Positions 1 to 61,032 of a stretch of DNA of 64,000 nt are shown here, piece by piece. Numbering within the stretch: the first letter of the stretch is position 1; each line of letters opens with the position of its first letter. Under the pieces are notes generated by a model, which had not been told where the DNA came from, did no database searches, and worked only from the letters and a program-made list of their open reading frames with translations. The stretch is from Mageeibacillus sp. UBA5438 (GTDB taxonomy: Bacteria > Bacillota > Clostridia > Saccharofermentanales > DTU023), in NCBI GenBank assembly GCA_002427535.1, contig DIRK01000058.1:811-64810 (forward strand), in the 5' to 3' direction. A program made the position numbers and the translations under genes.

Positions 1-1
1 C

Positions 2-721
2 CGAGGACGGGAAAGAAGCCCCGGTGAGTTTAGGCACTCCCAAAACTGGATAGGGGGAGTTGGCAGCACTTTAAAAACGGCAAAGTATATTCCACCCAAT
101 GTTTCTGATATGAATCTCTCTATGTCCGACCTAGAAAAATATATGAATGCGGATGATGATTTAGATACGCTCATCCGTGCAGGACTTATTCACTATCAGT
201 TTGAAACGATCCATCCCTTCCTTGATGGGAATGGGCGTGTAGGCAGAATGCTAATCATTTTATTCCTGATAGAAAAAGGACTATTAAGTAGTCCTGTGTT
301 GTATATCTCCTACTTCTTAAAAATGAACAGGCTTGAATATTACGATCGACTTTCGGAGGTTAGGAATAGGGGTAACTATGAACAGTGGGTTAAATTCTTT
401 TTGCGAGCCGTTCTGGAATCAGCGGAGGATGCAACTGCAACCATTGATCGGTTAGAGGCACTTCGCAATAAAAATGCAGCCTTAATACACGAGAAGGGCA
501 AAGCAACAAAAAACACCTTGCGTCTTTTGGATTATTTGGAAGCTAATCCTATTATTGAGATTTCAAAAACGGCAAAGGCTTTAGGGCTTGCTTTTAATAC
601 AACATCTGACGCCATCAAAAGGTTAGAGAAAACGGGCATCTTAGTTCAATCCGCCGGGCAGCAAAGGAACAGGATCTATTCATACAAAGCATACTTAGAG
701 CTCTTAAGGGATGGGACTTAA
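2..721 (+). CDS. Fic/DOC family protein (adenylyltransferase type), N-terminus cut by window edge
   Basis: Frame of ORF 110..721 stays open back to nt 2 (..GEFRHSQNWIGGVGSTLKTAKYIPP..). Canonical Fic motif HPFLDGNGRVGR = HxFx(D/E)GNGRxxR. wHTH-like C-terminal tail. Visibly AT-richer than the rest of the window. Confidence 0.85.
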   Translation, partial: RGRERSPGEFRHSQNWIGGVGSTLKTAKYIPPNVSDMNLSMSDLEKYMNADDDLDTLIRAGLIHYQFETIHPFLDGNGRVGRMLIILFLIEKGLLSSPVLYISYFLKMNRLEYYDRLSEVRNRGNYEQWVKFFLRAVLESAEDATATIDRLEALRNKNAALIHEKGKATKNTLRLLDYLEANPIIEISKTAKALGLAFNTTSDAIKRLEKTGILVQSAGQQRNRIYSYKAYLELLRDGT

Positions 722-897
722 TATTGAATGCAACGGATCATGGTAATAAAAGGCTTTTGATAAATCCTCTTCGCTGTGTGCCGCCGCTTGATGGGGGAAC
801 CTTCATCCGGAACATCAAGAAATATCTCTTGATCGATAAAAGCCGCGGTCAGCAAAACCGGAAATAGGAGTTGATCTCAATGCCTGAGTGATGACCG

Positions 898-1320
898 TTA
901 ATTGGCCCCATCACCCGCGATAAAAAAGGACAATTCGCCGCTCACGCATAAATCGCCATCGACACGCCCTTCACATTCAATGACATAGACATTCATCCTT
1001 CTGCGAAGTAAACGACTTTTAAACTCAATCGTGTCACCCGGCACCACCACACGGCGAAACTTCACCTTATTCATACCCGTAAAATACGGGATAAAATCCC
1101 CCTCAAAATCAATCAAAAGACAAGCCGACTGCCCCATCATCTCGCAGATAATAACGCCGGGCACGACCGGGTTATCAGGAAAATGCCCTTGTAAAAAAAA
1201 CTCATCGCCCCGCACCGTATAAGAGCCTTGCGCCAACCCCTCCTCGCAAAACGCCTCATCCACCAACAACATAGGCTCCCGGTGCGGAAGTATTTTTTTA
1301 ATCGCTTCTTTATCCATCAT
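898..1320 (-). CDS. fabZ: 3-hydroxyacyl-ACP dehydratase FabZ
   Basis: 140 aa hot-dog fold protein. Motifs LPHREPMLLVDE and GHFPDNPVVPGV. Start overlaps the stop of the upstream fabF remnant (ATGATGA). Confidence 0.9.
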   Translation of the reverse strand: MMDKEAIKKILPHREPMLLVDEAFCEEGLAQGSYTVRGDEFFLQGHFPDNPVVPGVIICEMMGQSACLLIDFEGDFIPYFTGMNKVKFRRVVVPGDTIEFKSRLLRRRMNVYVIECEGRVDGDLCVSGELSFFIAGDGAN

Positions 1321-1877
1321 GAATCTCCGATACGTTGGAACAAGACACCCGCGTTATGCCCACCGAAACCCAATGACAACGACAGGGCCTTGTCCACTCT
1401 TTGCGGCCTCGCCGTGTGCAAAATATAGTCAAGATCGCAATCAGGATCAGGCACCTTCAAACCAATGGTCGGGGGTAAAATCTCCGTTTCAAGCGCCTTA
1501 ATAGAAGCGATCGCCTCCACCGCGCCCGCGGCCCCCAGCATATGACCCACCATAGACTTTGTGGAACTCATCGGGATCCTGTAGGCCTGTTCACCCAACA
1601 CCGATCTCAACGCAAAACTCTCCGCCTTGTCATTTAAAGGCGTCGACGTTCCGTGCAGATTGATGTAAAAACAATCATCTATTTTCGCGCCCGCCTCTTC
1701 CATGGCAAGCTCAATCATCCGAATACTGCCCTCGGCCTCCGGATGCGGCGCTGTCACATGGTAAGCGTCACAGCTATTGCCATAGCCTGTCATCTCACAG
1801 TAAATCTTCGCGCCGCGCGCCACCGCGCGTTCGTACTCCTCCAACACAAGAGCTCCGGCGCCCTCCCGCATTGACAT
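1317..1877 (-). pseudogene. fabF: beta-ketoacyl-ACP synthase II (FabF), C-terminal ~45% only; 5' half missing
   Basis: The 186 aa ORF begins at the ..EGAGALVLEEYERAVARGAKIY.. region and keeps the two His motifs (HGTSTPLND, GHMLGAAG). The N-terminal half with the active-site Cys is absent. The upstream frame hits a stop at 1908-1910, and the next gene starts 56 nt away on the other strand. Confidence 0.75.
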
Positions 1878-1899
1878 TCTTCTCCCATAGGCATAGCAT
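1871..1899 (+). promoter_or_regulatory. candidate sigma70-type promoter for the wHTH-LicC-LicA gene
   Basis: TTGACA (1871-1876), 17-nt spacer, TAGCAT (1894-1899), ~35 nt upstream of the ATG at 1934. The -35 box lies inside the fabF remnant. Confidence 0.35.
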
Positions 1900-1933
1900 A
1901 AAAATGTTCACCTAAAGTGAGAAAAGAGTATTC

Positions 1934-3691
1934 ATGAACAAAATTGACTATGACATCCTGCAATACCTGCTCGGCCATACACAAACCACACAGCGAGACA
2001 TCGCGACAGCCTTGCGGCATTCGCTCGGCGCCATCAACAAAGCCATTCAACGCCTGAAATATAAAAACCTCATCGACGATGACAACCGCGTCCGCCCCAA
2101 GGTCAAAAAACTACAAGACTATTCCAAACCACGAAAAGCCGTCATCCTCGCCGCGGGCTTCGGCCTTCGAATGATCCCCTTCAACTTCGACACCCCCAAA
2201 GGCCTCCTGGAAGTCAAAGGCGAACTTCTGATCGAACGGCTCATCCGCCAGCTCAAAGAAAAGGATATTGACGAAATTCATATCGTCGTCGGGCACTTAA
2301 AAGAAAGCTACGAATACCTTATCGACCTCCACGGCGTCGAACTCATCGTCAACCGCGAATACGCGCGCAAAAACAACTTACACTCCCTTTTTCTCGCATC
2401 CGAACATTTAGAAAATACCTACATCCTACCCTGCGACCTCTACTTTTTAGAAAACCCCTTCTCGGCCTATGAATTTTACTCCTGGTACGCCTTAGGCGAC
2501 GAGCTTGAAGACCCGGGGAAGCTCCGCATGAACCGCTTCGGAGAACTCATCCAAACCAAACGCGACGAAAAAGGTCAAATCCTCTTAGGCCTTGCCTACC
2601 TGCACGCAAAGGAAGCCCCCTCCTTCAACGACCGCTTGCAATCCCTTGCCACAGACTCCCGTTCAGACGATGTTCCCTGGGAAGGCGTGCTAATAGAAGG
2701 AAATATCCCCTTCAAAGCCAAACGATTTCGACAAAACAGTTTCCACGCATTCAAAACCGTGGCGGACCTCCAGGCATTCGATGGCGACAGCCAACTCCCC
2801 GACAACCGATCCCTCACGCTCATCTCCGAGATCCTTGACACCTCCGTCCATGAAATCACCGGGATAAAGCCCATGAAAACAGGCATGACCAACCGCTCCT
2901 TTCTCTTCGACCACAAGGGGCAGACCTATGTCATGCGCCTCCCCGGCGAAGGCTCCGAAGCGCTCATCAACCGCCCACAAGAATACGAGGTCCACCAAGT
3001 TATAACCCGTGAAAAACTGGCCGATGAACTCGTCTACCTTGACCCCAAAACAGGCATTAAACTCGCGCAATTTCTGCCGAACGCACGTGTCTGCGACCCC
3101 CATAACGACGGCGATCTTCTCCGATGCATGACCCTCCTGAGAACATTCCACGAACAGCGCCTACAAGTCGACCACCCCTTCGACCTGTTCCAAAACATCC
3201 TTTTCTACGAACACTTAAGAGGCTCCGTCCCCTCCGTCTACCGTGACTACGAAAAGACCAAGGCCTCCGTCATGGCCCTGTTTGAATTCATCAAATCCTT
3301 TGAGCGCGAACAAGTCCTCTGTCACATCGACGCCGTACACGATAACTTCCTGTTCTACCGAGAAAATTGCGATGGCCCCGAACAAATCAAAATGATCGAC
3401 TGGGAATACGCCGGCATGCAAGACCCCCATGTCGACATCGCCATGTTCTCCATCTACGCCGGTTATAAAAAGGATGAAATCGATCACCTAATCGATCTTT
3501 ACTTCCAAAACTCATGCCCGCCCTTGATCCGGCTCAAAATCTACGCCTATGTCGCCATATGCGGCCTGTTATGGAGCAACTGGTGCGAATACAAGCGCCT
3601 GTTGGGCGTCGACTTTGGCGAATACTCCCTGAACCAGTACCGCTACGCCAAAGAGTATTCGCGGCTCGTCACAGAAAAAGGCAAAAAATGA
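1934..3691 (+). CDS. tri-domain fusion: wHTH + LicC-like CTP:phosphocholine cytidylyltransferase + LicA-like choline kinase (motifs intact)
   Basis: N-terminal HTH (TQRDIATALRHSLGAINKAIQRL). NTP-transferase loop ILAAGFGLRMIPFNFDTPKGLLEV. Kinase P-loop-like KTGMTNRSF..YVMRLPG, Brenner motif HIDAVHDN, ChoK motif MIDWEYAGMQDPHVDIAMF. Confidence 0.85.
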   Translation: MNKIDYDILQYLLGHTQTTQRDIATALRHSLGAINKAIQRLKYKNLIDDDNRVRPKVKKLQDYSKPRKAVILAAGFGLRMIPFNFDTPKGLLEVKGELLIERLIRQLKEKDIDEIHIVVGHLKESYEYLIDLHGVELIVNREYARKNNLHSLFLASEHLENTYILPCDLYFLENPFSAYEFYSWYALGDELEDPGKLRMNRFGELIQTKRDEKGQILLGLAYLHAKEAPSFNDRLQSLATDSRSDDVPWEGVLIEGNIPFKAKRFRQNSFHAFKTVADLQAFDGDSQLPDNRSLTLISEILDTSVHEITGIKPMKTGMTNRSFLFDHKGQTYVMRLPGEGSEALINRPQEYEVHQVITREKLADELVYLDPKTGIKLAQFLPNARVCDPHNDGDLLRCMTLLRTFHEQRLQVDHPFDLFQNILFYEHLRGSVPSVYRDYEKTKASVMALFEFIKSFEREQVLCHIDAVHDNFLFYRENCDGPEQIKMIDWEYAGMQDPHVDIAMFSIYAGYKKDEIDHLIDLYFQNSCPPLIRLKIYAYVAICGLLWSNWCEYKRLLGVDFGEYSLNQYRYAKEYSRLVTEKGKK

Positions 3692-4407
3692 CTGTACATC
3701 TTGCAAAACGCGCGATCGTCATGGCAGCGGGAAAAGGGACGCGACTTTTACCCTATACGGAGAACACGCCAAAGCCCCTCCTTCAGGTCAAAGGTCAGCG
3801 CATGATCGACTCCATCATCCGGGCGCTCCACTCCAGGGGCATCCATGAAATCTACATCGTCACCGGTTACTTAAAAGAACAGTTTGAAACACTGCCCCAA
3901 GAATACCCGGGCGTCACGCTCATCCATAACCCGTATTTTGAAAAAGCCAACAACATCTCCTCCCTCTTTGTCGCAAGAGCGCAGCTCGAGGATGTCATCC
4001 TCATGGACGGCGACCAGCTGATCGAAAACGAAGACGTCCTCGATCCTGTATTTGAAGGATCCTGTTACTGTGCCTTTCAACAACAAAACTTAAGGACGCG
4101 TGAGTGGATATTAGAGCTTACGGACGGGATTATCACAAAATGTCACCGGGAGGGAGGCGTCGCGGGCTGGCAGCTTCAAAGCGTCTCCTTTTGGACCAAA
4201 GAAGACGCCTTGAAACTGCAACAAGACCTCGAAGAGCTATTTATAAAAGAACGCCGCTTCGATCTATTTTGGGACGACATCGCCCTTTTCGAACGCCCCG
4301 AACGCTATCGACTGGGCATACGAAAAGTCAAAGCGGGCGACATCTTAGAAATCGACACCGTGGAAGAACTGCGCGCCGTTGACGCGCAATACGACCCTAC
4401 TAAATAA
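3688..4407 (+). CDS. licC: CTP:phosphocholine cytidylyltransferase (LicC-like), stand-alone
   Basis: ATG at 3688 overlaps the upstream stop (ATGA). The listed ORF 3514.. is an out-of-context extension. Canonical MAAGKGTRLLPYTENTPKPLLQV loop; MDGDQLI acidic motif; 239 aa. Confidence 0.85.
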   Translation: MTVHLAKRAIVMAAGKGTRLLPYTENTPKPLLQVKGQRMIDSIIRALHSRGIHEIYIVTGYLKEQFETLPQEYPGVTLIHNPYFEKANNISSLFVARAQLEDVILMDGDQLIENEDVLDPVFEGSCYCAFQQQNLRTREWILELTDGIITKCHREGGVAGWQLQSVSFWTKEDALKLQQDLEELFIKERRFDLFWDDIALFERPERYRLGIRKVKAGDILEIDTVEELRAVDAQYDPTK

Positions 4408-4422
4408 AGAAAGATAACGACC

Positions 4423-6021
4423 ATGAACCGCACCGCTTCTCACAAACGATCCCTTCGAACCCTCGTTCAAAACATCGACTGGTTGTCCACCCTCTTGCCC
4501 CTGGGCATCATACTGATGCTCACCTTCTTTCTCATCTTCTCCCCGGGACAGTCTACCCTGGTCATTGACCGCATCCGCGATTTCATCGGCAACGAACTGG
4601 GATCCTACTATATTCTATTAGGCCTGCTGTTCTTTTTCGGTTCACTCTACATCGCCTTTTCCCGATACGGTTCTATCCGTTTAGGGAAACTCGAAAAACC
4701 CGAATATTCGTCCTTCAAATGGGGCACCATGATCTTCACCTCCACCATGGCCGCCGACATCCTTTTCTATTCACTTTGCGAATGGGCGCTCTATAGCGGG
4801 GAAGACCACATTCAGGGATTGGGCAACCTCACGCTGTGGGCGCCGACCTATCCCCTCTTCCACTGGGGTCCCATCGCCTGGTCCTTCTACGTCGTGTTGG
4901 CGGTCGCCTTCGGCTTCATGTTGCATGTACGGGGCAAGAATAAACAAAAATTCTCAGAAGGCTGCCGACCCTTATTAGGTAAATACGTCGACAAGGCACC
5001 GGGGAAGATCATTGACCTGTTTTCCATCTTCGCGCTTTTGGCCGGAACCGCCACAACCTTCTCGCTCGCCACACCCCTTTTAAGCGCCGCTTTGGGACGC
5101 GTCTTAAACATCCCCGCTTCGTTAGAACTCACCCTCTTTGTCATGGTCACCACCGCAGTCGTGTACACCCTGGCCGTCTGGTTTGGCATGCGCGGCATCG
5201 CGCTTTTAGCCACAGGCTGCGTCTACTTATTCTTCCTGTTATTGGGCTACGTCCTTTTCGGAGGCGGAGAGACCGTCTACATCCTGGAGACCGGCATCGC
5301 GTCTTTAGGGAATCTCATTCAGAACTTTTTAGGCCTTGCGACCTGGACCGATCCCCTAAGGCAGACCCATTTCCCGCAAAACTGGACCATCTTCTACTGG
5401 GCCTACTGGATGGTCTGGTGCGTGGCGACCCCGTTTTTCATCGGGATTATCAGCCGGGGGCGCACGATCAAGAATGTCGTGCTGGGCGCCTATGGCTGGG
5501 GACTTGCCGGCACCTTCACCTCATTTATTATTTTAGGGAACTACGGCCTGGCCCAGGAGTTAAAACACGGCCTCGATATCTCAAGTCATATCGCCCGAAC
5601 AGGCAATATCCAGGAGGCGATCTTAAAAATCTTTGACACACTGCCCCTCCCCGCCTTCGGCCTTATTTTATTGGTCATCACGATGATCGCCTTTTACGCG
5701 ACCACCTTCGACGCGCTCACCATGGTCATCTCCTCCTACTCGTATAAGAAGCTCGAAGTCGGTAAAGAACCGCATAAACTCGTCCGCAGTTTCTGGGCGC
5801 TCTTGTTCATCCTATTGCCCATCGGGCTATTATTCGGAAGAAACTCCATGAACAGCTTGCAGTCGATCTCAATTATCGCGGCTTTCCCCATGGGCATCAT
5901 CGTGACCCTGATCGCGGCCAGTTTTTTAAAGGACGCCAATCACTATTTAAAAGGAGATTCAAAAACAGACGATCAGACACCCGTCGCAAGCGAGGGTTCC
6001 AAATCTTCCAACAAACGGTAG
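4423..6021 (+). CDS. BCCT family (betaine/carnitine/choline) transporter
   Basis: 532 aa polytopic membrane protein. BCCT-signature-like NWTIFYWAYWMVWCVATPFFIGIISRGRTIKN. Sits in the choline locus. Confidence 0.85.
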   Translation: MNRTASHKRSLRTLVQNIDWLSTLLPLGIILMLTFFLIFSPGQSTLVIDRIRDFIGNELGSYYILLGLLFFFGSLYIAFSRYGSIRLGKLEKPEYSSFKWGTMIFTSTMAADILFYSLCEWALYSGEDHIQGLGNLTLWAPTYPLFHWGPIAWSFYVVLAVAFGFMLHVRGKNKQKFSEGCRPLLGKYVDKAPGKIIDLFSIFALLAGTATTFSLATPLLSAALGRVLNIPASLELTLFVMVTTAVVYTLAVWFGMRGIALLATGCVYLFFLLLGYVLFGGGETVYILETGIASLGNLIQNFLGLATWTDPLRQTHFPQNWTIFYWAYWMVWCVATPFFIGIISRGRTIKNVVLGAYGWGLAGTFTSFIILGNYGLAQELKHGLDISSHIARTGNIQEAILKIFDTLPLPAFGLILLVITMIAFYATTFDALTMVISSYSYKKLEVGKEPHKLVRSFWALLFILLPIGLLFGRNSMNSLQSISIIAAFPMGIIVTLIAASFLKDANHYLKGDSKTDDQTPVASEGSKSSNKR

Positions 6022-7760
6022 TAGTCCTTGGCATAGCGAAACTTGTTCATGGGGAAGGCCCCCATGTTAACCCCGATCCGTTTTTTGTTCAGACTGCACA
6101 TGGTACAGAGCATCCCGCATAGCGCGATGCTCAAATACAGGCGGATCAATTCTTCTTTTGTCGCCGCGCGTCCCAGGTAATACGCAAGGGCCAATTCATG
6201 GCGCCCCCGGTCAAAGTCCGCGCGGTTACAGAACATGGCCACATCGAAAAAGGGGTCGTCCATGCCCGCAAAATCCCAATTGATCACGCGAAGGCCTCCG
6301 GTTGAAAGACGGATCACATGCTCCGCAATATATTCCCTGTGGCATAACACTTGGTCCACCGGAATTCGCTCTTTCAAGCGCAAAAGCGTCGCCATCTTCT
6401 CATGCATCTCATCGATGTCGCGAAAGGGGATGCCGCCCGCCCGGTTGACGCGCTGTTGGTAATCCAGATAACACTTTTGGGTATTGCAATGGTTGTTAAC
6501 TTGCAGTTTCCTGTCGTGGACGAGCGAAATGAGCCGCATACTGTCCAAAAGATCGCGGTCTCGATAGGGGTTCACCTTCGAGGAATGATCGTAATAATGG
6601 ATGATCCGAACACCCGTCTCAGTATCTAAACTCAACAGCTGTTCGGTCACTTCAAGGGGGCGCAAAAGATCGTAGACGGACTGAACCTCTGCATAATCGA
6701 CACAGGCATCTTCTTCTCCGTTCGGTATACGTAAAACGTATTCTTCTTCCCCGACACTGAACTTATATGCCTCGTGGCCGATTTCATCGAAGATAAGCTC
6801 CATCTCCTCGATCGCATCATGCGTTAGGCACTCGTTCATGGGGAAATGCTGAAGCACGCGTTGTTTCGCTTCTATCCGATAGCTTTTATCAAAGGCTCGC
6901 AGCTCATCGAGGGAGTTGAATGCATGGACTATTCCTGACAGCTCACGAGCTCTGATCGACAGGCCGTTGAAATGTTCCATGAGCACCTGCTCCCAATATT
7001 GACGACTCATCTCAGCTTCAAGGTAGTGCGCTTGCAATAACTTCTTGACGCTTTCGGCCGTGTTGCGATCCACATACGCGGGCCCGATAAGCGCGAGACA
7101 ATCCTGCCCGCCCAATTGGACATTTTGAATCCACCCTCTGGGGGTCACCTCCACCGCCCAAGCGGACACCGGCCCTTCGCGAAAGACACAAGCATGCCAG
7201 CTTTCCGGCTCATAATCGTGGAATATGTTGTCCTCCATATAGTGCTCCGCCATGAGCACATAGCTGTTGCCCAGATGTTCCAGCGCGTGGTACAGGCTCG
7301 AAAAATTTTCAAAGGTCGCGTAATCCGGGTTGTAGATGAGGCGGATACCGTAACGGTCAATCAGGTAGTCATAGGCTTCCAGATGGTTACCCGCCAGCAA
7401 ATAAATAGTATCGATGCCCTGCTCTTTCAACTGATCGATCTGGCGCTCAATCATGACCTCGCCTTTAACCTCGAGTAAACCCGCCGGCTGGGTGCCCATA
7501 AAGGGAAATGACGGAAATTTAAAAGTGGCGGCCAAAATAATGGCGTTTTCGACCCGATAGGTTTCAAGCCACGCGAGTCCCTTTTCGGTGACCCTTAGAT
7601 CATCCTTATTTCGTTCTAGAAACTGATTCGAAAGAGCGTCCTTGATCACCCGATTTACGGTGCCCAAAGACAGCTGACATTGTTCAGCAAGGCGCCGCTG
7701 CGTCAAAGAACCGTCTTTCAGTAATCCGCGAAGGATCGGAACCGCATTTACCGCATTCAT
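5973..7760 (-). CDS. wHTH + LicC-like + choline-kinase-like paralog with degenerate catalytic motifs (putative pseudoenzyme/regulator)
   Basis: Same architecture as 1934..3691. NTP loop is ILAATFKFPSFPFMGTQPAGLLEV (no GxGxR, no PK). Kinase P-loop replaced by DEIGHEAYKF. Brenner motif is HREYIAEH. ChoK motif is VINWDFAG (D to N). Confidence 0.8.
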   Translation of the reverse strand: MNAVNAVPILRGLLKDGSLTQRRLAEQCQLSLGTVNRVIKDALSNQFLERNKDDLRVTEKGLAWLETYRVENAIILAATFKFPSFPFMGTQPAGLLEVKGEVMIERQIDQLKEQGIDTIYLLAGNHLEAYDYLIDRYGIRLIYNPDYATFENFSSLYHALEHLGNSYVLMAEHYMEDNIFHDYEPESWHACVFREGPVSAWAVEVTPRGWIQNVQLGGQDCLALIGPAYVDRNTAESVKKLLQAHYLEAEMSRQYWEQVLMEHFNGLSIRARELSGIVHAFNSLDELRAFDKSYRIEAKQRVLQHFPMNECLTHDAIEEMELIFDEIGHEAYKFSVGEEEYVLRIPNGEEDACVDYAEVQSVYDLLRPLEVTEQLLSLDTETGVRIIHYYDHSSKVNPYRDRDLLDSMRLISLVHDRKLQVNNHCNTQKCYLDYQQRVNRAGGIPFRDIDEMHEKMATLLRLKERIPVDQVLCHREYIAEHVIRLSTGGLRVINWDFAGMDDPFFDVAMFCNRADFDRGRHELALAYYLGRAATKEELIRLYLSIALCGMLCTMCSLNKKRIGVNMGAFPMNKFRYAKDYYRLLEDLEPSLATGV

Positions 7761-7796
7761 AAAAACCCCAATTACGCATAATTATAACAATAAAAG

Positions 7797-9584
7797 TTAT
7801 TCATAAATGTCCGATAAAACCCCTCTGCCCTCCAACAAGATGTAATAATCCTTCATAAAGCGGTACATCCGCACCGGATAGTCGCCCAAATCAAGCCCGT
7901 GTCGCTTCTTATGCAGCCCCCACATGGACCACAGCATCCCGCCGAGCGCGGCGTAAAGGTAGAGTCTTACGATTTCCGTCTCATCGGGATCGCGCCCCAG
8001 ATGCAGACGAAGCGCCAGGAGGAGGCGTTCTTCATTAAAGTTTGCGTCGATTGCGAACATGGCCACATCCATCAGGGGATCCGACATACCCGAAAACTCC
8101 CAGTTCGTAATGAACAGGCCGCCCGTCTTTTTGCGGATGACATTTGCGTAAAGATAGTCGCCGTGACACAACACCGGGTCAACATCGAGATGCGCTTTTA
8201 AAAAAAGCAGTCGCTCCATCTTCTGCTTCATCTCCTCAATATCGCGGAAAGGCACACCCCCTGTCTGCTCAACCAGTGATTCATAATGAGAAAACATCTT
8301 CACAATATCGTAATGACGATCGATTCGAAGCTTTCTGTCGTGTATCTGCCGGATGAGCTGCATGCTATCCGAAAGATCACGGTCGTTCATGGGATCCACA
8401 TAGTGGGATTCGTCCGCAAAACGTGTAATGCGAATACCGCTCGACACATCGCTGTCCAACAATTCCTCCGCCACCTCAAGCGGTGCCAGGATGTCGTAGA
8501 CATGCTTCACACTCGCATGGTCGTACAAAGAAACCTCTTCTTCACCGGGAATGCGGATGACATAGGCATCCTCACGCACGTCGAAGCGATACATCTCGCT
8601 GTCCCACTCGTCCTCAAGCAGTTCAATGGATTCGATGTCCTCCACTAGAAGCGGGGCGGCGGACGGAAAATGGGCGATGATCTCTCTTTTTAGATCATCG
8701 TAATGCGATTCATCGTAATGGCGCACCTGATCAAGATGGTTGAACTCATACACATAACCTGTCTGCACATTGGCCTTCATTTGGAAATCGTTGAAATTTT
8801 CCTTCAAAATCTCCTCCCAGTAGTAATGCGTCGCCTCACCCCGGCCGTAATAGTCATTGAGCAATATTTTCAAACGCTCGGACATCTCACGGTTCAGATA
8901 AGCCGGTCCCACCACCGTCAGGCTGTCCTTCCCCCCGACCCGAATGTTTTTTATCCAACCCATCGGGGAGGTGCTGACACACCAGTCATTGGTGTCACCT
9001 TCGCAATACACACAGCAGTACCAGCTTGTGGCCTCATAAAGGTTAAAGAAATTCTTCTCGATATAGGTGTCCGCCACCAAAATATAGGTATTGTCGAGTT
9101 TGTCGGCGGCATGGTAGAGGCTCGCGTAGTTATTAATCGTCGCAAAATCGGGATTGTAAACCAGCGTGACACCGTAGCGGTCAACCAGGTAGTCATAGGC
9201 CTCCATCTGGTAGCCCACCACCAGGGTAATGTCGAAAATTCCACGATCTTGGAGCTGTTCGATCTGGCGCTCGATCATGATCTCGCCTTTGACCTTCAAA
9301 AAACCGCCGGGTATTTCATCCACCGTCCCCAGCGCGGAAGAGGTGAAGCCCGCAGCCAATACGATCGCGTTTTTCACTTTGTAGGGTTCAAGAAAAACAA
9401 GTCCCTCATCTGTCACACGCAAACCGTCGTCAAGGCGCAGCAAATAATGTTGGTCGAGCGCCCGTTGAATCACGCGGTTAATCGTACCCAGCGACATGCC
9501 GCATGTGGCCGCAAGATTTCTTTGGGTCTGTTGAGGATCCTTTAATAACTCCCTCAGAATGATGACAGTGTTTCCTTGACTCAT
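7797..9584 (-). CDS. wHTH + LicC-like + choline-kinase-like paralog with degenerate catalytic motifs
   Basis: Likely start MSQGNTV at 9584; the listed ORF start 9707 would overlap the upstream paralog. NTP loop VLAAGFTSSALGTVDEIPGGFLKV. P-loop region DEWDSEMYRF. HGDYLYAN retained, but ITNWEFSG (D to N). Confidence 0.8.
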   Translation of the reverse strand: MSQGNTVIILRELLKDPQQTQRNLAATCGMSLGTINRVIQRALDQHYLLRLDDGLRVTDEGLVFLEPYKVKNAIVLAAGFTSSALGTVDEIPGGFLKVKGEIMIERQIEQLQDRGIFDITLVVGYQMEAYDYLVDRYGVTLVYNPDFATINNYASLYHAADKLDNTYILVADTYIEKNFFNLYEATSWYCCVYCEGDTNDWCVSTSPMGWIKNIRVGGKDSLTVVGPAYLNREMSERLKILLNDYYGRGEATHYYWEEILKENFNDFQMKANVQTGYVYEFNHLDQVRHYDESHYDDLKREIIAHFPSAAPLLVEDIESIELLEDEWDSEMYRFDVREDAYVIRIPGEEEVSLYDHASVKHVYDILAPLEVAEELLDSDVSSGIRITRFADESHYVDPMNDRDLSDSMQLIRQIHDRKLRIDRHYDIVKMFSHYESLVEQTGGVPFRDIEEMKQKMERLLFLKAHLDVDPVLCHGDYLYANVIRKKTGGLFITNWEFSGMSDPLMDVAMFAIDANFNEERLLLALRLHLGRDPDETEIVRLYLYAALGGMLWSMWGLHKKRHGLDLGDYPVRMYRFMKDYYILLEGRGVLSDIYE

Positions 9585-9607
9585 ACGCACCCCGTCTACT
9601 TGTATAA

Positions 9608-11368
9608 TTATACCATGGCAAGCGGGTAAAAGTCCTTCAAATAGCGGTACATCTTTAAGGGATAGGCTCCAAGATCGAAACCTGAACGCTTTCTTTGCAG
9701 CCCCCACATGGACCAGAGAAGACCCCCCAAAGCGACATAAAGATACAGGCGGATCAACTCTTCTTGTGTGGGCGCACGGCCCAAATATAAAGCAAGCGAA
9801 AGATCCAAGCGCGCTTGGTCAAAATAGGAGTAAATGCCAAACATCGCCACATCCATAAGCGGGTCGCTCATGCCGGCAAATTCCCAATTAATAATGAACA
9901 AACCGCCCGTGGTTTTACGGACGACATGGGCGTACAGATAATCACCGTGGCAAAGCACAGGCTCGATATTGAGACGCTCCTTGATTTTTAGAAGATTTCT
10001 CATCTTGGCCTTGACATCGTCAATGTCACGAAACGGCATGCCGCCCGTGCGGTACACCTTGTTTTCATAGTAAGCCGTCATTTTCTCAATATCGTAATCG
10101 TAGTCGACCTTAAGCTTCCTGTCATGGATCAGGCGTATCAGCTGCATGCTGTCAGCAAGGTCCCGGTCATCGAAGGGATCGACAAAAGACGAACGCTCGA
10201 CATAGCGCGTGACACGGATCCCTGTCGGGATATCAAAATTTAACACCTCATCGGTCACCTCTAAGGGCGCCAATAGCTCATAGGTTTGTTTGACCTTGGC
10301 ATTGTCAATAAACGCTTCGCAGTTTTTATCCGGTACGCGAAGCACATACTCATGGCGGTCGATCACAAATTTGTAAACGTCATAGGCGACTTCATCCGCT
10401 AATGGCGTGATTTTTTCAATTTTTTCAGATGAAATCGACCACGCATCCGCGTAGTACGCCGCAATCTGATCCCTGACTTCTTTTAGGTAAGCCTTGTCAT
10501 AGGCATGCACATCTTCAATACGTGTGAATTCATAGACCTTACCCGTCTGGATATTCGCCCTTTTCGGGAAATCTTCAAAATGCTCCAAAAGGCGCGCCTG
10601 CCAATAGGCGTTTGTCATCTCCGCTTCGCTGATATTGTGCTCAAAAAAGGATCGGATATTTTCACTCATGAAACAATCGTAGTAGGCCGGCCCCACGACG
10701 GTCATGCAATTTTTGCCTCCCAAGCGCATATTTTTTATTTTGCCGCCGGGCGTGACATCGACACACCAGTCCGAGGTCTCCCCCTCACAATAGCTCACCG
10801 AATACCAGGCATAGGGTTCGTAGCGATGAAAAAGATTCTCCTCTAAGTAGCTGTCCGCCACGAGCAGGTAAGTATTATCCAGATAATCCAAGGCATACAT
10901 GAGACTTGCGAAGTTGTTGATTTTGCTGAAGTCGGGATTGTAGATCAATTTGACCCCGTAGCGGTCAACTAAATAGTCATAGCTTTCCATCCGAAAACCG
11001 ACGACAATGGCGATTTCACGAATCCCGCGCTCCAAAAGCTGTTCAATCTGCCGCTCAATCATGATCTCCCCTTTCACCTCGAGGAAACCGGGCGGCATGG
11101 TGGCAGATAGGGATAGAGCGCTTGCTGAAAAACCCGCGGCAAGAATAATGGCGTTTTTCACCTGATAGGGTACAAGCCAATCGAAACCGGCTTCGGTGAC
11201 ATAAAGTCCCTCTTCGCGGCGTTCAAGATATTTTTTTTCGATGGCACGGTTGACGACATGATTTACGGTCCCCAATGAGAGACCGCAACGATCCGCCAGC
11301 TGCCTTTGAGACAGACGGCCGTTTTCAATCAATTCACGAAGTATCGGGACCGCATTTTCAGCCTTCAT
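9608..11368 (-). CDS. wHTH + LicC-like + choline-kinase-like paralog with degenerate catalytic motifs
   Basis: Likely start MKAENAVPIL at 11368, with GAGG ~10 nt upstream. NTP loop ILAAGFSASALSLSATMPPGFLEV. P-loop region DEVAYDVYKF. HGDYLYAH (N to H). IINWEFAG (D to N). Closest to the 7797..9584 paralog. Confidence 0.8.
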   Translation of the reverse strand: MKAENAVPILRELIENGRLSQRQLADRCGLSLGTVNHVVNRAIEKKYLERREEGLYVTEAGFDWLVPYQVKNAIILAAGFSASALSLSATMPPGFLEVKGEIMIERQIEQLLERGIREIAIVVGFRMESYDYLVDRYGVKLIYNPDFSKINNFASLMYALDYLDNTYLLVADSYLEENLFHRYEPYAWYSVSYCEGETSDWCVDVTPGGKIKNMRLGGKNCMTVVGPAYYDCFMSENIRSFFEHNISEAEMTNAYWQARLLEHFEDFPKRANIQTGKVYEFTRIEDVHAYDKAYLKEVRDQIAAYYADAWSISSEKIEKITPLADEVAYDVYKFVIDRHEYVLRVPDKNCEAFIDNAKVKQTYELLAPLEVTDEVLNFDIPTGIRVTRYVERSSFVDPFDDRDLADSMQLIRLIHDRKLKVDYDYDIEKMTAYYENKVYRTGGMPFRDIDDVKAKMRNLLKIKERLNIEPVLCHGDYLYAHVVRKTTGGLFIINWEFAGMSDPLMDVAMFGIYSYFDQARLDLSLALYLGRAPTQEELIRLYLYVALGGLLWSMWGLQRKRSGFDLGAYPLKMYRYLKDFYPLAMV

Positions 11369-11390
11369 TGACTTAGCCTCACATGTGTTC

Positions 11391-11426
11391 AATATAGCAT
11401 ATGAAAGGCCGCCTTTTGAACATATG
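11391..11426 (-). promoter_or_regulatory. candidate promoter (TTCAAA-18-TGcTATATT) overlapped by an imperfect palindrome CATATGAAAGGC/GCCTTTtgaaCATATG
   Basis: On the minus strand, TATATT is the complement of 11391-11396 and TTCAAA is the complement of 11415-11420. The inverted repeat spans 11398-11426. It lies in the 150-bp divergent region between the paralog operon and the yidC-tagF-like gene. Confidence 0.3.
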
Positions 11427-11518
11427 ATCCATTCTCGGACTGGCGTGGCTGTGGTACCATCTAGGGGATCGATCGCGCCCATAAACAGCGCTCGAGACAG
11501 GGGGATTTTTGTCAGCCT

Positions 11519-13726
11519 ATGTCCGTCATTAACACCGTTTTCGGCATCCCGTTCGGATACCTCATGTACCTTCTCTACCAGCTTTCCAAAAACTACGGCA
11601 TGGCCATTCTTTTGTTTACGCTGGTCACAAAAATCCTAATGTTTCCCCTGTCCTTAATCTCACAAAAAAATGCCATCATCATGGCCAAAATACAACCGGC
11701 CTTAGACGACATCCGCCGCTTTCACGCGGGCAACAACCCCCTCATCATGGAGGAACAAAAAAAACTGTTCAAAGAAGAGGGCTACAGCACATGGAAAAGC
11801 CTTGTCCCCCTCCTTGTCCAGATCCCCATCATCTTGGGGCTCATCCATGTCATCTACCATCCGCTGCAGCATATCCTCCGCCTGGACGCGGCCACCCTCG
11901 ATTTACTGTTGAATAAAACAGCTCAACTGTTGAATACGACCCGCGAGGCTTTAGGCTCGGGCGCCGAGTTGAAAATCATCGAAATGGTCGCCGAAAACCC
12001 GGCGCTCTTCCAAGGGATGAGCGGGGTCGAAAAGATCCTTGCCTTGGACATGCAGTTCTTGGGCGCAGATCTCAGCCATATCCCAAGCTTCTCCTCACTT
12101 CTTATCTTATTTCCCATTTTGTCGGGCGCAAGCGCCCTTCTTCTCGCCGTCTGCCAGAATCGCCATTACGTATTGCAGATCACGCAGAGCGCTTTTAGAA
12201 AATGGTCAATCAGCCTTTTCCTTGTGGCCTTCTCCTTTTTCTTCGCGCTCATCCTGCCCGCAGGTGTAGGACTCTACTGGATCGCGGGAAACCTTTTGTC
12301 CGTCGCGGTGCTTTTCATATGTAATGGGATCTACGACCCCAAAAAACTTGTACCCGAAAGTTACTTCCAACCCAAAGGTAAGCGAAGCCGAAAGGAAAAA
12401 GAGGAAGAAAAAACACGCGAAAAGGCAAAGAAAGCCCGTCAAAAAGAAGACCGCAGACGTTTTATGGCAATAAAAGGCAAACAGCTTGTCTTCTACGCGG
12501 AAAACGCCAGCTATTACCGCTATTTCAAAGGATTCATCGACTACATCCTGAAGCACTCCGAACTTGTCATCCACTATGTCACAAGTGACCCCGAGGATCC
12601 TGTTTTAAGAAACGATCACCCGCGCCTTTTAGGCTACTACATCGGCCCGGTCGCCCTCATTTCCTTCATGATGCGCCTGGACGCCGACATGCTCGTCATG
12701 ACCATGCCCGACCTTGAAACCTACCATATCAAGCGCTCCATCGTACGAAAAGACGTTGAATACGTCTACCTGGACCACGGGATGACGAGTTTCCACCTGA
12801 TGCTGAAAAAGGGAGCCCTCGATCATTTCGACACCATCTTCTGCTACGGGCCCAACCACGCCGATGAAGTGCGTGAGACGGAACGCGTGTACGGATTGCC
12901 GCGGAAAAAACTCGTGAAAACGGGCTATCCGCTCCTCGACCAAATGATCGAAGGCGCCAAGGCCCTGGGGCCCATTCAAAACGACCCCAAGGTCATCATG
13001 ATCGCCCCCTCTTGGCAAAAGGACAACATCATGGACTTCTGTCTCGATGATTTAATCATGCCTCTTTTGCAAACAGGCTACCGCGTGATCCTCCGACCGC
13101 ACCCTGAATACGTGAAGCGCTTCCCCGACAAGATGGAAAGGCTCAAGACGCGCTACGAAAAGCACCTCGGCCCTTATTTTGACATTCAAACCGAATACCA
13201 AAAAACAGAATCGGTGTACAGCGCCGACCTGGTCATCACGGACTGGTCCTCCATCGCGCAGGAATTTTCCTACGCCACAAAAAAACCCTCACTTTTTATT
13301 AACACGCCCATGAAAATCATGAACCCTGAATACCAAAAAATACCGCTTGTCCCCCTCGACATTTCACTGCGCGATGAAATCGGCCGCTCCCTCGACTTGG
13401 AACAGCTGGATACCCTGCCCGCCCTGATTGAGTCCCTCATGAACGAAGGTGAAGCTTGGTGTCGTCGCATCGAACAGGTCGTCTCGGATAATATCTATGA
13501 CGTCGGCCGCGCGGCCGAAGGCGGAGGGCGCTACATCATCGAAACACTCTCGAAGAAAAAGCACGTTCAAAAGGAAAATGATGAGAAGCAAAACGCCCTT
13601 TTGGAACTCGATCACACATGGGAAGCCATGCGCAGTCAACTGAGCCAAGAAGAGGCCGTAATGCTATTAAAACAACTGGAAGATTTCCAAAGGATCACAA
13701 ACGAACAGGAGGGCGATCATGCGTAA
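11519..13726 (+). CDS. fusion protein: YidC/Oxa1-type membrane insertase domain + TagB/TagF-type CDP-alcohol phosphotransferase domain
   Basis: Residues 1-~270 resemble YidC (NYGMAILLFTLVTKILMFPLSL, MAKIQPALDDI, LPAGVGLYWIAGNLLSV; ~5 TM). Then a Lys/Glu-rich linker (KGKRSRKEKEEEKTREKAKKARQKE). The C-terminal ~430 aa carry TagF-family motifs (MIAPSWQ, ILRPHPEY, VITDWSSIAQEFSYATKKPSLFI). Confidence 0.75.
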   Translation: MSVINTVFGIPFGYLMYLLYQLSKNYGMAILLFTLVTKILMFPLSLISQKNAIIMAKIQPALDDIRRFHAGNNPLIMEEQKKLFKEEGYSTWKSLVPLLVQIPIILGLIHVIYHPLQHILRLDAATLDLLLNKTAQLLNTTREALGSGAELKIIEMVAENPALFQGMSGVEKILALDMQFLGADLSHIPSFSSLLILFPILSGASALLLAVCQNRHYVLQITQSAFRKWSISLFLVAFSFFFALILPAGVGLYWIAGNLLSVAVLFICNGIYDPKKLVPESYFQPKGKRSRKEKEEEKTREKAKKARQKEDRRRFMAIKGKQLVFYAENASYYRYFKGFIDYILKHSELVIHYVTSDPEDPVLRNDHPRLLGYYIGPVALISFMMRLDADMLVMTMPDLETYHIKRSIVRKDVEYVYLDHGMTSFHLMLKKGALDHFDTIFCYGPNHADEVRETERVYGLPRKKLVKTGYPLLDQMIEGAKALGPIQNDPKVIMIAPSWQKDNIMDFCLDDLIMPLLQTGYRVILRPHPEYVKRFPDKMERLKTRYEKHLGPYFDIQTEYQKTESVYSADLVITDWSSIAQEFSYATKKPSLFINTPMKIMNPEYQKIPLVPLDISLRDEIGRSLDLEQLDTLPALIESLMNEGEAWCRRIEQVVSDNIYDVGRAAEGGGRYIIETLSKKKHVQKENDEKQNALLELDHTWEAMRSQLSQEEAVMLLKQLEDFQRITNEQEGDHA

Positions 13727-15653
13727 AAAGATGTCCGCTTTCCTCCTTTTCACAGGCTACTTCCTTATCCGGACGAAGCCCGTACACGCCTACATTGATC
13801 CCGCGACGACGACCTATCTCATCCAAATTTTGTCGGCGCTTGTCATCACATTGGGCGTGACCGTCGGCGTGTTTTTCGGCCGCATCCGACAGTTCTTTTT
13901 AAACTTCCGCGTCCGCATGACAGAACTTCGCATCCGCGTGTTCGAGCAAAAAAGAGAGGACAAGCAACCGCAAAAAATTGAAAAACAAGAAATCTCGTTG
14001 CCCTTCATAAAACGCTTCCTCCTCGCCTTACCAACCTCCGTCGCCCTCTTTTTCACCCTCGTAATCTTTGGCGTGTATGAGCTTTACATGAACAATCAAG
14101 AAGCCTTTATGTTCCCCCTCACATCCGTTCTCTTGTCGCTCATTCTCATCGCTCTTTTTGGAACGCTTTTATTGGCCCTCCTGATTGCTGTGTTTCGACA
14201 CCATACCTTTTCGACGGTTCTGTCGATTGCCTTTGGACTTCTATTGGCCTTCAACCTTGAGGGCAATCTGTTGAACCTTTCTTTGGGCGAACTGACAGGC
14301 GACAGCATCCCTTGGGAACTGTACCGGACAGAGGCGATCGTTAACCTGTTCGTCTGGATCGTACTCATCGGCCTTGTGGTTGTGATCGGCCACTACTTAA
14401 AAAACTTTTGGAAAGTCCTTGTAAGACTCGCCCCCGCCGTCATCCTTATGGCACAGATCATCGCCATGATCGTGATCTCCGCCACCGCGGCGCCCTCCAC
14501 ATTAGAGGACAACCTGTATTTGTCACGCCAGGGTATTTATGAAGTCGGCAAAAAGGAGAACATCGTCGTCATTGTGCTGGATCGTCTCGACAACTGGTTC
14601 ATCAATGACGTGCTGAAAGAAGAACCCGATTTTTTCGACCGTATGGACGGTTTCACGCGCTTCACGAACAACATCTCGCTTTACAGCCAAACCTTCCCCT
14701 CCGTGGCCAATATGCTGACCGGTGAACGCTACGACTTTAACGACTACTGGGCCGATTATTTGGAAAATGCTTGGAAAACAGGTGATTTCATCCCCCGATT
14801 AAAAGGGGCGGGTTACGAAAACCGCTTCTATATGGAGCGTAGCTACGCCTACCGGGACGCCCAAGATCTTCTAGGCCTTGCGGATAACATCGTCGAAGGA
14901 AAAATCAGCATCGACCGCAAGGAGGCCGTCGGGCAATTTATGGGACTCTCCTCCTACCGCTATGTCCCCTTGGCCTTAAAACCCTTCTTTTGGACCTCCA
15001 CTGAGGCATTCGGTAAGATCATCGATGTCAGTTTAGAAACAGCCCCCTATATCACAGATGACCTCGCCTTCTTCAAAGGTTTAAAAGAAGAGCGGTTGAA
15101 AATTGGGGAGGCCGAGAAGAATTTCCTGTTCATTCATTTGAATGGCCCCCATCCTCCCTACAATTTAGATGAATACGGAAACGAAGCGGAGCCCGGGCAG
15201 TCCTCCTATAAAATTCAGACGAAGGGGAGCTTTCGCATTGTCTTTGAATATTTGGACCAATTAAAGGCTCTCGGACTCTACGAGGACGCGACCATCATTG
15301 TGACAGGCGACCACGGGGCGCGTTTATCTGACACACAGCCTTTGAGCTCCGCCATTGTGACAGGCCTGTTCGTCAAACCGAAAGGCGCGATCGGCGAACC
15401 CATTAAGATCAACCGCGCGCCCTTGACCTCGGACAATCTGCGGGCCACCGTCATCGAAGCGGCGGGCATCGATGCCCCCCAGTACGGCCAGAGCTATTTT
15501 GAGGTGTCGCCCGATGAATTCGCCGTCCGCTTCCTCTTCCACCGCCTGTACGGTTCAGAGGACCAGCCGGCACGAGTCGAGGTATACCAGGTGCTGGGAG
15601 ACGCAAACCAGTTCAACAACTGGATTCTTGTGGAAGAGGAGATTATCCGGTAA
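13719..15653 (+). CDS. polytopic membrane protein with extracytoplasmic LtaS/sulfatase (alkaline-phosphatase superfamily) domain
   Basis: Start overlaps the upstream stop by 8 nt. Multi-TM N-terminal half. C-terminal motifs IVVIVLDRLDNWF, YSQTFPSVANMLTG (candidate Thr nucleophile), LNGPHPPY, IIVTGDHGARL. Confidence 0.7.
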   Translation: MRKKMSAFLLFTGYFLIRTKPVHAYIDPATTTYLIQILSALVITLGVTVGVFFGRIRQFFLNFRVRMTELRIRVFEQKREDKQPQKIEKQEISLPFIKRFLLALPTSVALFFTLVIFGVYELYMNNQEAFMFPLTSVLLSLILIALFGTLLLALLIAVFRHHTFSTVLSIAFGLLLAFNLEGNLLNLSLGELTGDSIPWELYRTEAIVNLFVWIVLIGLVVVIGHYLKNFWKVLVRLAPAVILMAQIIAMIVISATAAPSTLEDNLYLSRQGIYEVGKKENIVVIVLDRLDNWFINDVLKEEPDFFDRMDGFTRFTNNISLYSQTFPSVANMLTGERYDFNDYWADYLENAWKTGDFIPRLKGAGYENRFYMERSYAYRDAQDLLGLADNIVEGKISIDRKEAVGQFMGLSSYRYVPLALKPFFWTSTEAFGKIIDVSLETAPYITDDLAFFKGLKEERLKIGEAEKNFLFIHLNGPHPPYNLDEYGNEAEPGQSSYKIQTKGSFRIVFEYLDQLKALGLYEDATIIVTGDHGARLSDTQPLSSAIVTGLFVKPKGAIGEPIKINRAPLTSDNLRATVIEAAGIDAPQYGQSYFEVSPDEFAVRFLFHRLYGSEDQPARVEVYQVLGDANQFNNWILVEEEIIR

Positions 15654-15658
15654 AACCT

Positions 15659-60641: not shown

Positions 60642-61032
60642 GCGCTTTACCCGATAATCTCTTCTCTATCATTTTACACAATATCGACTCAAGATTGCCT
60701 GTTAACTTGCCACAGCGATAGCGTCATTATAGACCATATCACTATTATATGACAACAGTGTTAAGGAATATTCATCCCCTCTTTTCGCCTTTTTATCCGA
60801 ATTAATCACCCGCGGCCGATGTTATTCAGATTTACCTCATTTTCCCACTTGTATACTCACGACAAAATACATCCCAACGAGAAATGTTATTTGTAAACTC
60901 ACACATCGAGCTTAGCCTACATAAGTGATAGAATTATAATAAATTATTCACCGCAACCTATTAGGCTGTGCAATTGAACATTGGATTGAATATGCAAAAT
61001 AAATCGTTTTTGCGAAACGAAGGAGGTTTTTC

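Follow-up and report, generated by a model that had tools for sequence, protein, structure and literature searches.

Three tandem wHTH-LicC-LicA paralogs with eroded catalytic motifs as candidate transcription regulators of a choline-decoration locus in Mageeibacillus sp. UBA5438

A stretch of 64,000 nucleotides from Mageeibacillus sp. UBA5438 (assembly GCA_002427535.1, contig DIRK01000058.1, positions 811 to 64,810 of the forward strand) was analyzed and is called "the window" here; coordinates without a locus prefix refer to it. The subject of this report is a group of three consecutive minus-strand genes, A, B, and C, which encode proteins composed of a winged helix-turn-helix (wHTH) domain, a LicC-like cytidylyltransferase domain, and a LicA-like choline kinase domain, both enzyme domains being without residues that are conserved in intact relatives. 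The genes are separated by 36 nt (A/B) and 23 nt (B/C), and B is probably cotranscribed with C. These boundaries and distances, given before in a first-pass annotation of the sequence, agreed with the list of open reading frames (ORFs) and with the starts in gene calls on more than 20 public contigs, which yield proteins of 595 (A), 595 (B), and 586 (C) amino acids (aa); the mechanical ORFs of B and C extend farther upstream than the called starts. Public annotations label these proteins "phosphotransferase." The genes on which the following sections depend are these:

1934..3691, plus strand: gene D, wHTH-LicC-LicA (LicCA-type) enzyme, intact by its motifs, from a distant subclade
3688..4407, plus strand: stand-alone LicC-type cytidylyltransferase with an intact GxGTRx8PK signature
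4423..6021, plus strand: BCCT-family transporter (PF02028, E = 6e-120), a probable choline importer
5973..7760, minus strand: paralog A, the most eroded of the three copies
7797..9584, minus strand: paralog B, wHTH plus predicted dead LicC fold plus predicted dead LicA fold; Brenner motif intact, P-loop and Mg-binding Asp lost
9608..11368, minus strand: paralog C, wHTH plus predicted dead LicC fold plus predicted dead LicA fold; first gene past the operator-bearing promoter

The domain architecture had been proposed from the sequence for A, B, and C as well as for D, and the profile matches support this proposal. Pfam assigned HTH_24, NTP_transf_3, and APH/Choline_kinase to each of the four proteins; besides the HTH, A, B, and C gave only NTP_transf_3/LicC-like and APH/choline-kinase-like matches in Pfam and NCBIfam, and no NadR domains. 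The best PDB sequence matches of C were the pneumococcal proteins LicC (1jyk, E = 3e-30, residues 72-291 of C) and LicA (4r77, E = 5e-20). An AlphaFold model of C with a mean predicted local distance difference test (pLDDT) value of 86.7 was superimposed on both enzymes, with a template-modeling (TM) score of 0.83 for LicA and 0.89 for LicC; Foldseek gave 0.81-0.84 against the LicA structures 4r77/4r7b and 0.87-0.89 against the LicC structures 1jyk/1jyl. Residues 3-68 of the model form a winged helix, in which three helices and a two-strand wing are followed by one more helix, with pLDDT values of 93-97. The wHTH signature of the family, [ST]QRxLAx5SLGx[VI]N, is present in A, B, and C.

The erosion of the enzyme domains was mapped on an alignment of 86 intact relatives with five proteins of the "dead" clade, which are A, B, C, and two orthologues. 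All motif strings quoted in the first-pass annotation were found in the translations. In the LicC domain, the cytidylyltransferase signature GxG(T/S)Rx4-8PK is replaced by AATFKFPSFPFMGTQPAG in A, AAGFTSSALGTVDEIPGG in B, and AAGFSASALSLSATMPPG in C, so that the signature Arg and Lys, 100% conserved in the 86 intact relatives, are absent from all three. Throughout the five dead proteins, the signature has lost its second Gly, its Arg, and its Lys (97-100% in the intact set), except that the C orthologue L1_C retains the Arg. The conserved Lys aligned to K57 of LicC, also present in 97-100% of the intact set, was lost as well. In the model of C, the eroded signature loop (residues 80-89) is the sole segment with a pLDDT below 50 and is modeled as disordered.

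In the kinase domain, the P-loop reads EIGHEAY in A, EWDSEMY in B, and EVAYDVY in C, compared to GxTNxSF in the intact relatives; the Gly, Thr, and Asn of this loop and the following PGxGT turn (each 97-100% in the intact set) were lost in the dead proteins. The alpha-C Glu is a Val in five of five dead proteins (E60V). The Mg-binding Asp194 of the IDWEY motif, 100% Asp in the 86 intact relatives, is an Asn in A, B, C, and both orthologues. The Brenner motif HxDxxxxN is intact in B (HGDYLYAN), carries an Asn-to-His change in C (HGDYLYAH), and is changed from Asp to Glu and from Asn to His in A (HREYIAEH), so that Asn181 (97-100% in the intact set) is retained in B alone among the five dead proteins. 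In comparison to the 86 intact relatives, the losses described earlier in all three paralogs, namely of the GxGxR and P-K residues, of the glycine-rich kinase loop, and of the Asp now replaced by Asn, were thus borne out, and so was the alteration of the Brenner motif in two of them.

Other residues remained. B and C retain the columns aligned to D102, W131, W186, and E211 of LicC, which represent the metal ligands and the aromatic box (numbering of the alignment used here), and in the kinase domain the choline cage of LicA (Tyr197 as Phe, Trp251, Trp254, and Tyr268) and the catalytic-base Asp176. In A, both aromatic-box Trp residues of the LicC domain were kept and both metal ligands were changed (D102E and E211A), and the choline cage of the kinase domain was lost (Trp251Cys and Trp254Cys) together with an Asp176Glu change. 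The alignment points to a selective pattern in which residues handling nucleotides and phosphate were lost and the pockets for the choline head group were kept in B and C. A compensating basic residue, specific for the clade and conserved, was sought in the signature loop and the P-loop of the dead-clade alignment, and none was found.

Mutational data are available for several of these positions. In the related enzyme PntC, the R15A and K25A variants of GXG(T/S)RX4-8PK leave less than 10% activity, and a Lys-to-Ala change in the same signature abolishes the activity of FrbH and YgbP (PMC6697681). In LicA, T29A leaves about 10% and D176A about 14% activity, and Asn181, Asp194, and Glu196 are reported to be important (PMC4364537). 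A, B, and C are most likely catalytically dead in both enzyme domains, to judge from their residues. Since they fail the enzyme-defining motifs of LicC and LicA, an annotation as choline kinase or cytidylyltransferase is unwarranted.

The three paralogs are only 30-32% identical to D. They are not copies of D but derive from another subclade, an intact member of which occupies the same slot in a sister genome. The closest intact relatives (P0004, P0005, and P0007) are 47-51% identical to C and share the motif HGDYLYAN with B. In assembly GCA_040767365.1, P0005 is a single intact gene in the slot of C-B-A, with Ddl, two unknown proteins, a sulfatase, and a YidC/TagF-like protein as shared neighbors; this locus is without the D-licC-BCCT cassette. 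In the tree, the dead clade is nested among intact enzymes, with A on the longest branch. In the alignment with the 86 relatives and in the tree, the degenerate state is shared across the clade of A, B, C, and the two orthologues. The derived changes D194N and E60V and the loss of K23 and G11 are common to the dead proteins. All five proteins have Asp194Asn, Glu60Val, and the signature losses in common, which dates the inactivation before both duplications and the speciation. It is likely that the resident enzyme-regulator became catalytically redundant once the distant D-licC-BCCT cassette was present, and then lost catalysis and was duplicated. A profile search of 1.84 billion representatives revealed no further close members of the dead clade, which is absorbed by P0016 at 50% clustering, and a GTDB scan for the clade returned only the species of the window itself.

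To place this clade within its family, 216 full-length fusions were classified, the LicC domain being scored by the presence of Arg plus Lys and the kinase domain by a strict five-residue criterion:

164 of 216: both residue sets kept, 34 of these without an HTH
24 of 216: dead LicC domain only
7 of 216: dead kinase domain only
11 of 216: both domains dead, all with an HTH, six independent representatives
10 of 216: intermediate state of the kinase domain, one key residue missing

The double-dead relatives in other lineages mean that this state is not unique to the window. Two of these independent lineages (L044 and L045) carry a perfect TGTTCA-N25-TGAACA repeat, a sequence that is considered below, immediately upstream of the gene. 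The protein in L045 (P0185, L045:8001-10643) comprises 880 aa and combines an HTH, a dead LicC domain, and a dead LicA domain with another LicA domain that is intact; a stand-alone LicC gene and a BCCT gene come next within a polysaccharide locus. By its gene content, this locus seems to show the same outsourcing of catalysis as the window. In the sister group of the dead clade (P0014-P0016, P0019, and P0022), only the LicC signature is eroded (AALPPHQLLPP..RGLL) and the kinase is intact. A member of this group at L009:7045-9782, its LicC domain dead and its kinase domain live, directly follows a separate HTH plus NTP-transferase (HTH-LicC) protein of 297 aa, and the start of this operon carries TGTTCA-N25-TGAACT. 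This pairing of dead modules with live catalysis elsewhere indicates that the unit of HTH, LicC fold, and LicA fold persists as a module where another source provides the catalysis, as in the window. Eight relatives of 830-910 aa (P0099, P0103, P0106, P0107, P0141, P0147, P0148, and P0153) may share the build of P0185. A large subgroup, P0141-P0286, has AAG(L/M)SSRF in place of GxGxR, with Ser for the second Gly, and intact kinase motifs.

Within the species of the window (comparison with L002-L007), 0-8 synonymous changes per gene were found, too few for an estimate of selection, so that the syntenic locus of a second species, L001, was used. There, the YidC/TagF-like gene and the BCCT-licC-D cassette flank two dead paralogs: the orthologue of C (L1_C, L001:8217-10004, 68% identical) and that of B (P0002, L001:10001-11794, 67% identical). 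The D orthologue of this locus is 67% identical, and an orthologue of A was not present in L001. P0028 was considered as a third species and rejected; it belongs to an L001-species strain and carries a nonsense codon. Between the two species, the number of nonsynonymous substitutions per nonsynonymous site (dN) was 0.243 for B and 0.227 for C, compared to 0.254 for D and 0.259 for the stand-alone LicC, while synonymous sites were saturated with a proportion of differences (pS) of 0.74-0.82. Purifying selection acts on B and C as strongly as on the intact enzymes. The N-terminal HTH, noted before as well conserved, is among the best-conserved parts of B and C (dN of 0.16-0.22), compared to 0.39 in D, of which it is the least-conserved part. 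For A versus B or C, the proportion of nonsynonymous differences (pN) was 0.33-0.34 and pS was 0.75-0.79, and the reading frames of all three paralogs are open over 586-595 codons despite 45-52% divergence among them.

Evaluation of the regulatory role needs to consider the intergenic regions. The short intergenic blocks conserved between the window and L001 are promoter elements and an inverted repeat, TGTTCA-N24/25-TGAACA. An Rfam scan of positions 1..16000 gave no matches, so that a riboswitch does not explain these blocks. The repeat has exactly two matches in the 64-kb window, compared to 0.02 expected from shuffles, and they are at the promoters of C and D:

11386..11422, no strand assigned: candidate operator O_C, TGTTCA-N25-TGAACA, spanning both the -35 and the -10 element at the promoter of C
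1905..1940, no strand assigned: candidate operator O_D, TGTTCA-N24-TGAACA, beginning just past the promoter -10 of gene D and ending at the start codon of this gene

The promoter-like sequence of C is TTCAAA-18-TATATT with a TG (11420..11391, minus strand), and that of D is TTGACA-17-TAGCAT (1871..1899). Both repeats are conserved in L001, and a site of the O_C type with one mismatch per half-site is located at the promoter of the intact orthologue in L008. About 30 nt from O_C, at 11452..11460, is the conserved extended -10 of the divergent envelope operon, TGGTACCAT. An extended -10, TGTTATAAT, in the 36-nt gap upstream of A suggests that A has a promoter of its own. Operator-like sites with one mismatch at 41810, 55617, and 60945 were rejected as probable chance matches, since three such sites are near expectation.

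The repeat pattern was picked after both promoters had been viewed, which makes the window statistic post hoc, and it was thus tested on independent loci across taxa. In 33 genome loci encoding family members (579 kb), the core GTTCA-N22-29-TGAAC gave 30 inverted matches, compared to 2, 2, and 1 for everted and direct-repeat controls. A match within 200 bp upstream of a family gene was present in 16 of the 33 loci (17 such matches); the spacer is 24-26 nt long, and many of these spacers include a -10-like box. The loci bearing the site belong to Peptococcaceae, Oscillospiraceae, Lachnospiraceae, and Family XIII of the Clostridia, to Coriobacteriia, and to Treponema. Sites are also found at the start of an operon that ends in the family gene, for example in L035 and L009, and none of the five loci whose match lacks the HTH carries a site. 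The family protein is the only HTH protein consistently encoded beside the site; the parsimonious reading would be that the family wHTH binds the repeat and autoregulates.

With modest confidence, A, B, and C are interpreted here as descendants of a wHTH-LicC-LicA enzyme-repressor that lost both catalytic activities and survive as dedicated transcription regulators of a choline-decoration locus. Regulation by the paralogs had been proposed in the first-pass annotation, and this proposal gained candidate operator repeats at the C and D promoters and beside family genes in many taxa. The wHTH and the candidate operator go back to the ancestor of the whole family, to which the intact enzymes also belong, so that what the paralogs underwent was a loss of catalysis and not a gain of regulation. 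In the proposed mechanism, dimers would seat their two wHTH domains on the two half-sites and thereby occlude the promoter. The half-sites are about 30 bp apart center to center, or about three helical turns, which would suit a large protein with well-separated HTHs. Each of A, B, C, and D may pair with itself or with another of the four. The dimers would repress the C-B(-A) and D-licC-BCCT operons, with a possible influence on the divergent operon of the YidC/TagF-like and LtaS-like proteins, and a ligand in the retained pockets (choline, phosphocholine, or CDP-choline) would shift their affinity for DNA. Catalysis by the paralogs would have become dispensable once the D-licC-BCCT cassette supplied both activities. 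A may be partly independent, having its own extended -10, a lost kinase-domain cage, and no orthologue in L001, and it may be a degenerating or ligand-independent member.

Several observations weigh against this interpretation. The dead clade is known from two species only. Coding constraint may account for part of the conservation of O_D, the right half-site of which overlaps with the ATGAACA at the conserved start of D, and at several promoters GTTCA overlaps a -35-like TTCAAA. On the operator data, the binding protein may be A, B, C, or D, each of which has an HTH. All 11 double-dead sequences possess an HTH, which is not statistically significant at a background of about 79%. Finally, disrupted alleles exist. 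In several assemblies of the window species (P0124, P0125, and P0132), A has a frameshift after about residue 344 and is called as two pieces of 368 aa and 230 aa, which may be a real allele or a recurrent assembly error. At L043:2939-4444, the C orthologue carries a TAG at codon 329, a Tyr codon in L001, with the rest in frame, leaving an HTH plus dead-LicC product of 328 aa. These alleles indicate that at least part of each of the two proteins is dispensable in some strains.

Such alleles, together with the long branch of A and its missing counterpart in the second species, are what would be expected if the three genes were functionless, decaying duplicates. This is improbable for the group as a whole, because the frames stayed open at the divergence given above, the pN of A is well below its pS, the dN of B and C is no higher than that of the intact enzymes while synonymous sites are saturated, and the dead state outlived two duplications and one speciation. 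The dN/dS comparison rejects decay for B and C; A may be decaying in some strains. Slightly less probable still is that A, B, and C are enzymes nevertheless, by means of noncanonical residues or with another substrate. Active atypical pseudokinases such as CASK and SelO exist, B retains the full HxDxxxxN, and in B and C the choline cages, the Asp that serves as catalytic base, and the acidic Mg ligands (Asp and Glu) of the LicC fold are all in place. Set against this are the loss of several independent essentials per domain (signature Arg/Lys on one side; P-loop Gly/Thr/Asn, alpha-C Glu, and Mg-binding Asp on the other), the disorder predicted for the signature loop, the missing basic substitute in either loop, and the adjacent intact D and LicC, which already supply both activities.

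A third explanation is less remote than these two and yet unlikely as the sole role: A, B, and C may be noncatalytic partner subunits that tune the activity or localization of D or LicC allosterically, or dominant-negative antirepressors of D, and would then not bind DNA as regulators in their own right. Inactive paralogous subunits regulate other nucleotidyltransferases, as GlgD does with GlgC and GMPPA with GMPPB. Dead modules recur beside live ones, in cis in P0185, next to the HTH-LicC protein in L009, and next to D and LicC here, and an inverted-repeat operator implies dimers, which makes heterodimers with D plausible. A function as partner subunit alone would leave unexplained the tighter constraint on the wHTH in B and C than in D and also the perfect operator at the promoters of the double-dead lineages themselves. 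It is compatible with the interpretation as transcription regulators and does not exclude it.

More tentatively, and with somewhat more doubt than belief, the interpretation can be extended to the whole wHTH-LicC-LicA family, Treponema LicCA included. Its members would be unrecognized enzyme-repressors of the NadR or BirA kind that autoregulate choline uptake and activation via GTTCA-N24-26-TGAAC in Clostridia, Coriobacteriia, and spirochaetes and that repeatedly gave up catalysis, be it in a single domain or in both, to become pure sensors of choline, phosphocholine, or CDP-choline. A, B, and C, possibly as mixed dimers with the live enzyme, would then be the clearest natural case of separation of function. 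The protein of T. putidum (L026), close to LicCA, has a wHTH and keeps its motifs intact; its gene is preceded at 21 bp by GTTCA-N26-TGAAC and followed by a BCCT gene. Treponema LicCA itself is an experimentally known, catalytically active fusion enzyme (as cited in PMC8590670), all motifs of which are intact. It belongs to the same family as A, B, and C and has the same order of LicC followed by LicA, whereas A, B, and C lost both motif sets. A full-text literature search, with most subscription journals outside its coverage, returned no described HTH, operator, or dead paralogs for LicCA-type proteins.

Comparison to known systems shows which features are shared. LicC (1jyk/1jyl) and LicA (4r77/4r7b) of Streptococcus pneumoniae have the same folds, and their choline aromatic cages are retained in B and C. 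Each of the two is a single-domain enzyme of its own that has no HTH, whereas A, B, and C are fused and lack the signature Arg/Lys, the P-loop, and Asp194. NadR of enterobacteria is composed of an HTH, an NMN adenylyltransferase, and a ribosylnicotinamide kinase; it controls genes of its pathway including a transporter and remains an enzyme. By analogy, the intact family resembles NadR or BirA in its logic, the likeness to NadR being one of logic and domain order only because the enzyme folds (Pfam NTP_transf_3 and APH/Choline_kinase here) are unrelated. The dead members resemble regulators in which an enzyme fold that gave up its catalytic residues but not its binding pocket serves as a ligand sensor fused to a (w)HTH, namely the ROK repressors NagC and Mlc, PurR of Bacillus subtilis (PRTase fold), and NrtR (Nudix fold). 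In contrast to these regulators, the folds of which are unrelated, A, B, and C possess two different dead enzyme domains in tandem, are three paralogs in a row, and are encoded with a live member at one locus, where dead and live members apparently share one operator. BetI (TetR family) and GbsR (MarR type) are choline-responsive repressors of genes for choline uptake or utilization. Their role is similar to the one proposed here, but the sensor domains are unrelated, neither of the two being built from LicC or LicA folds.

Phosphocholine decoration of the cell surface shapes host interaction, and its regulation is little known outside pneumococcus and Haemophilus. If the interpretation is correct, the widespread enzyme LicCA would be its own repressor, and the operator could be used to predict choline regulons in anaerobes of the gut, the oral cavity, and bioreactors. 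The dead paralogs would be a rare bacterial transcription factor made of two different pseudoenzyme domains, with a live relative at the same locus; the evolution from enzyme to sensor would be directly testable, and choline-responsive parts for synthetic biology could be obtained. The recurrent erosion series (dead LicC with live kinase, live LicC with dead kinase, and both dead), with a live copy in cis or adjacent in the examined cases, suits the study of how functions are partitioned after duplication or gene acquisition.

On the other side of the C promoter, the divergent envelope operon (11519..15653) begins:

11519..13726, plus strand: YidC/TagF-like fusion, first gene of the operon
13719..15653, plus strand: LtaS-like sulfatase-fold protein, second gene of the operon

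The YidC/TagF-like protein (735 aa) is a YidC insertase domain fused to a TagF-like CDP-glycerol glycerophosphotransferase domain. Synteny of the envelope operon beside family genes is shared by L001, L002-L007, and L008. Between the LtaS-like gene and Ddl (15659..18083), two conserved proteins of 299 aa and 510 aa are encoded, essentially without a Pfam match. A LicD-type phosphocholine transferase was not visible near the lic genes of the window; for this reason, the YidC/TagF-like, the LtaS-like, the 299-aa, or the 510-aa protein may transfer phosphocholine.

At the other end of the gene group, the BCCT gene and A are convergent, and their 3' ends overlap by 49 nt (5973..6021), as they do in L002-L007. 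This overlap could permit transcriptional interference between the operons on the BCCT side and on the A side. Just 5' of the D promoter (898..1877) are a 186-aa ORF that covers no more of a beta-ketoacyl synthase than its C-terminal half, and a FabA-like ORF of 140 aa. The truncated-looking synthase was kept in all strains L002-L007, and it may be a remnant that marks an insertion boundary of the D-licC-BCCT cassette. At 60945..60980, the one-mismatch repeat TATTCA-N24-TGAACA, probably a chance match, is located beside a PucR-type regulator; a xanthine-dehydrogenase-like operon with FAD and 2Fe-2S subunits lies about 50 bp downstream of it. The start of the window cuts a gene at 110..721 for a Fic/DOC domain protein with a C-terminal HTH_24, which comprises 380 aa in L002 and is unrelated to the subject of this report.

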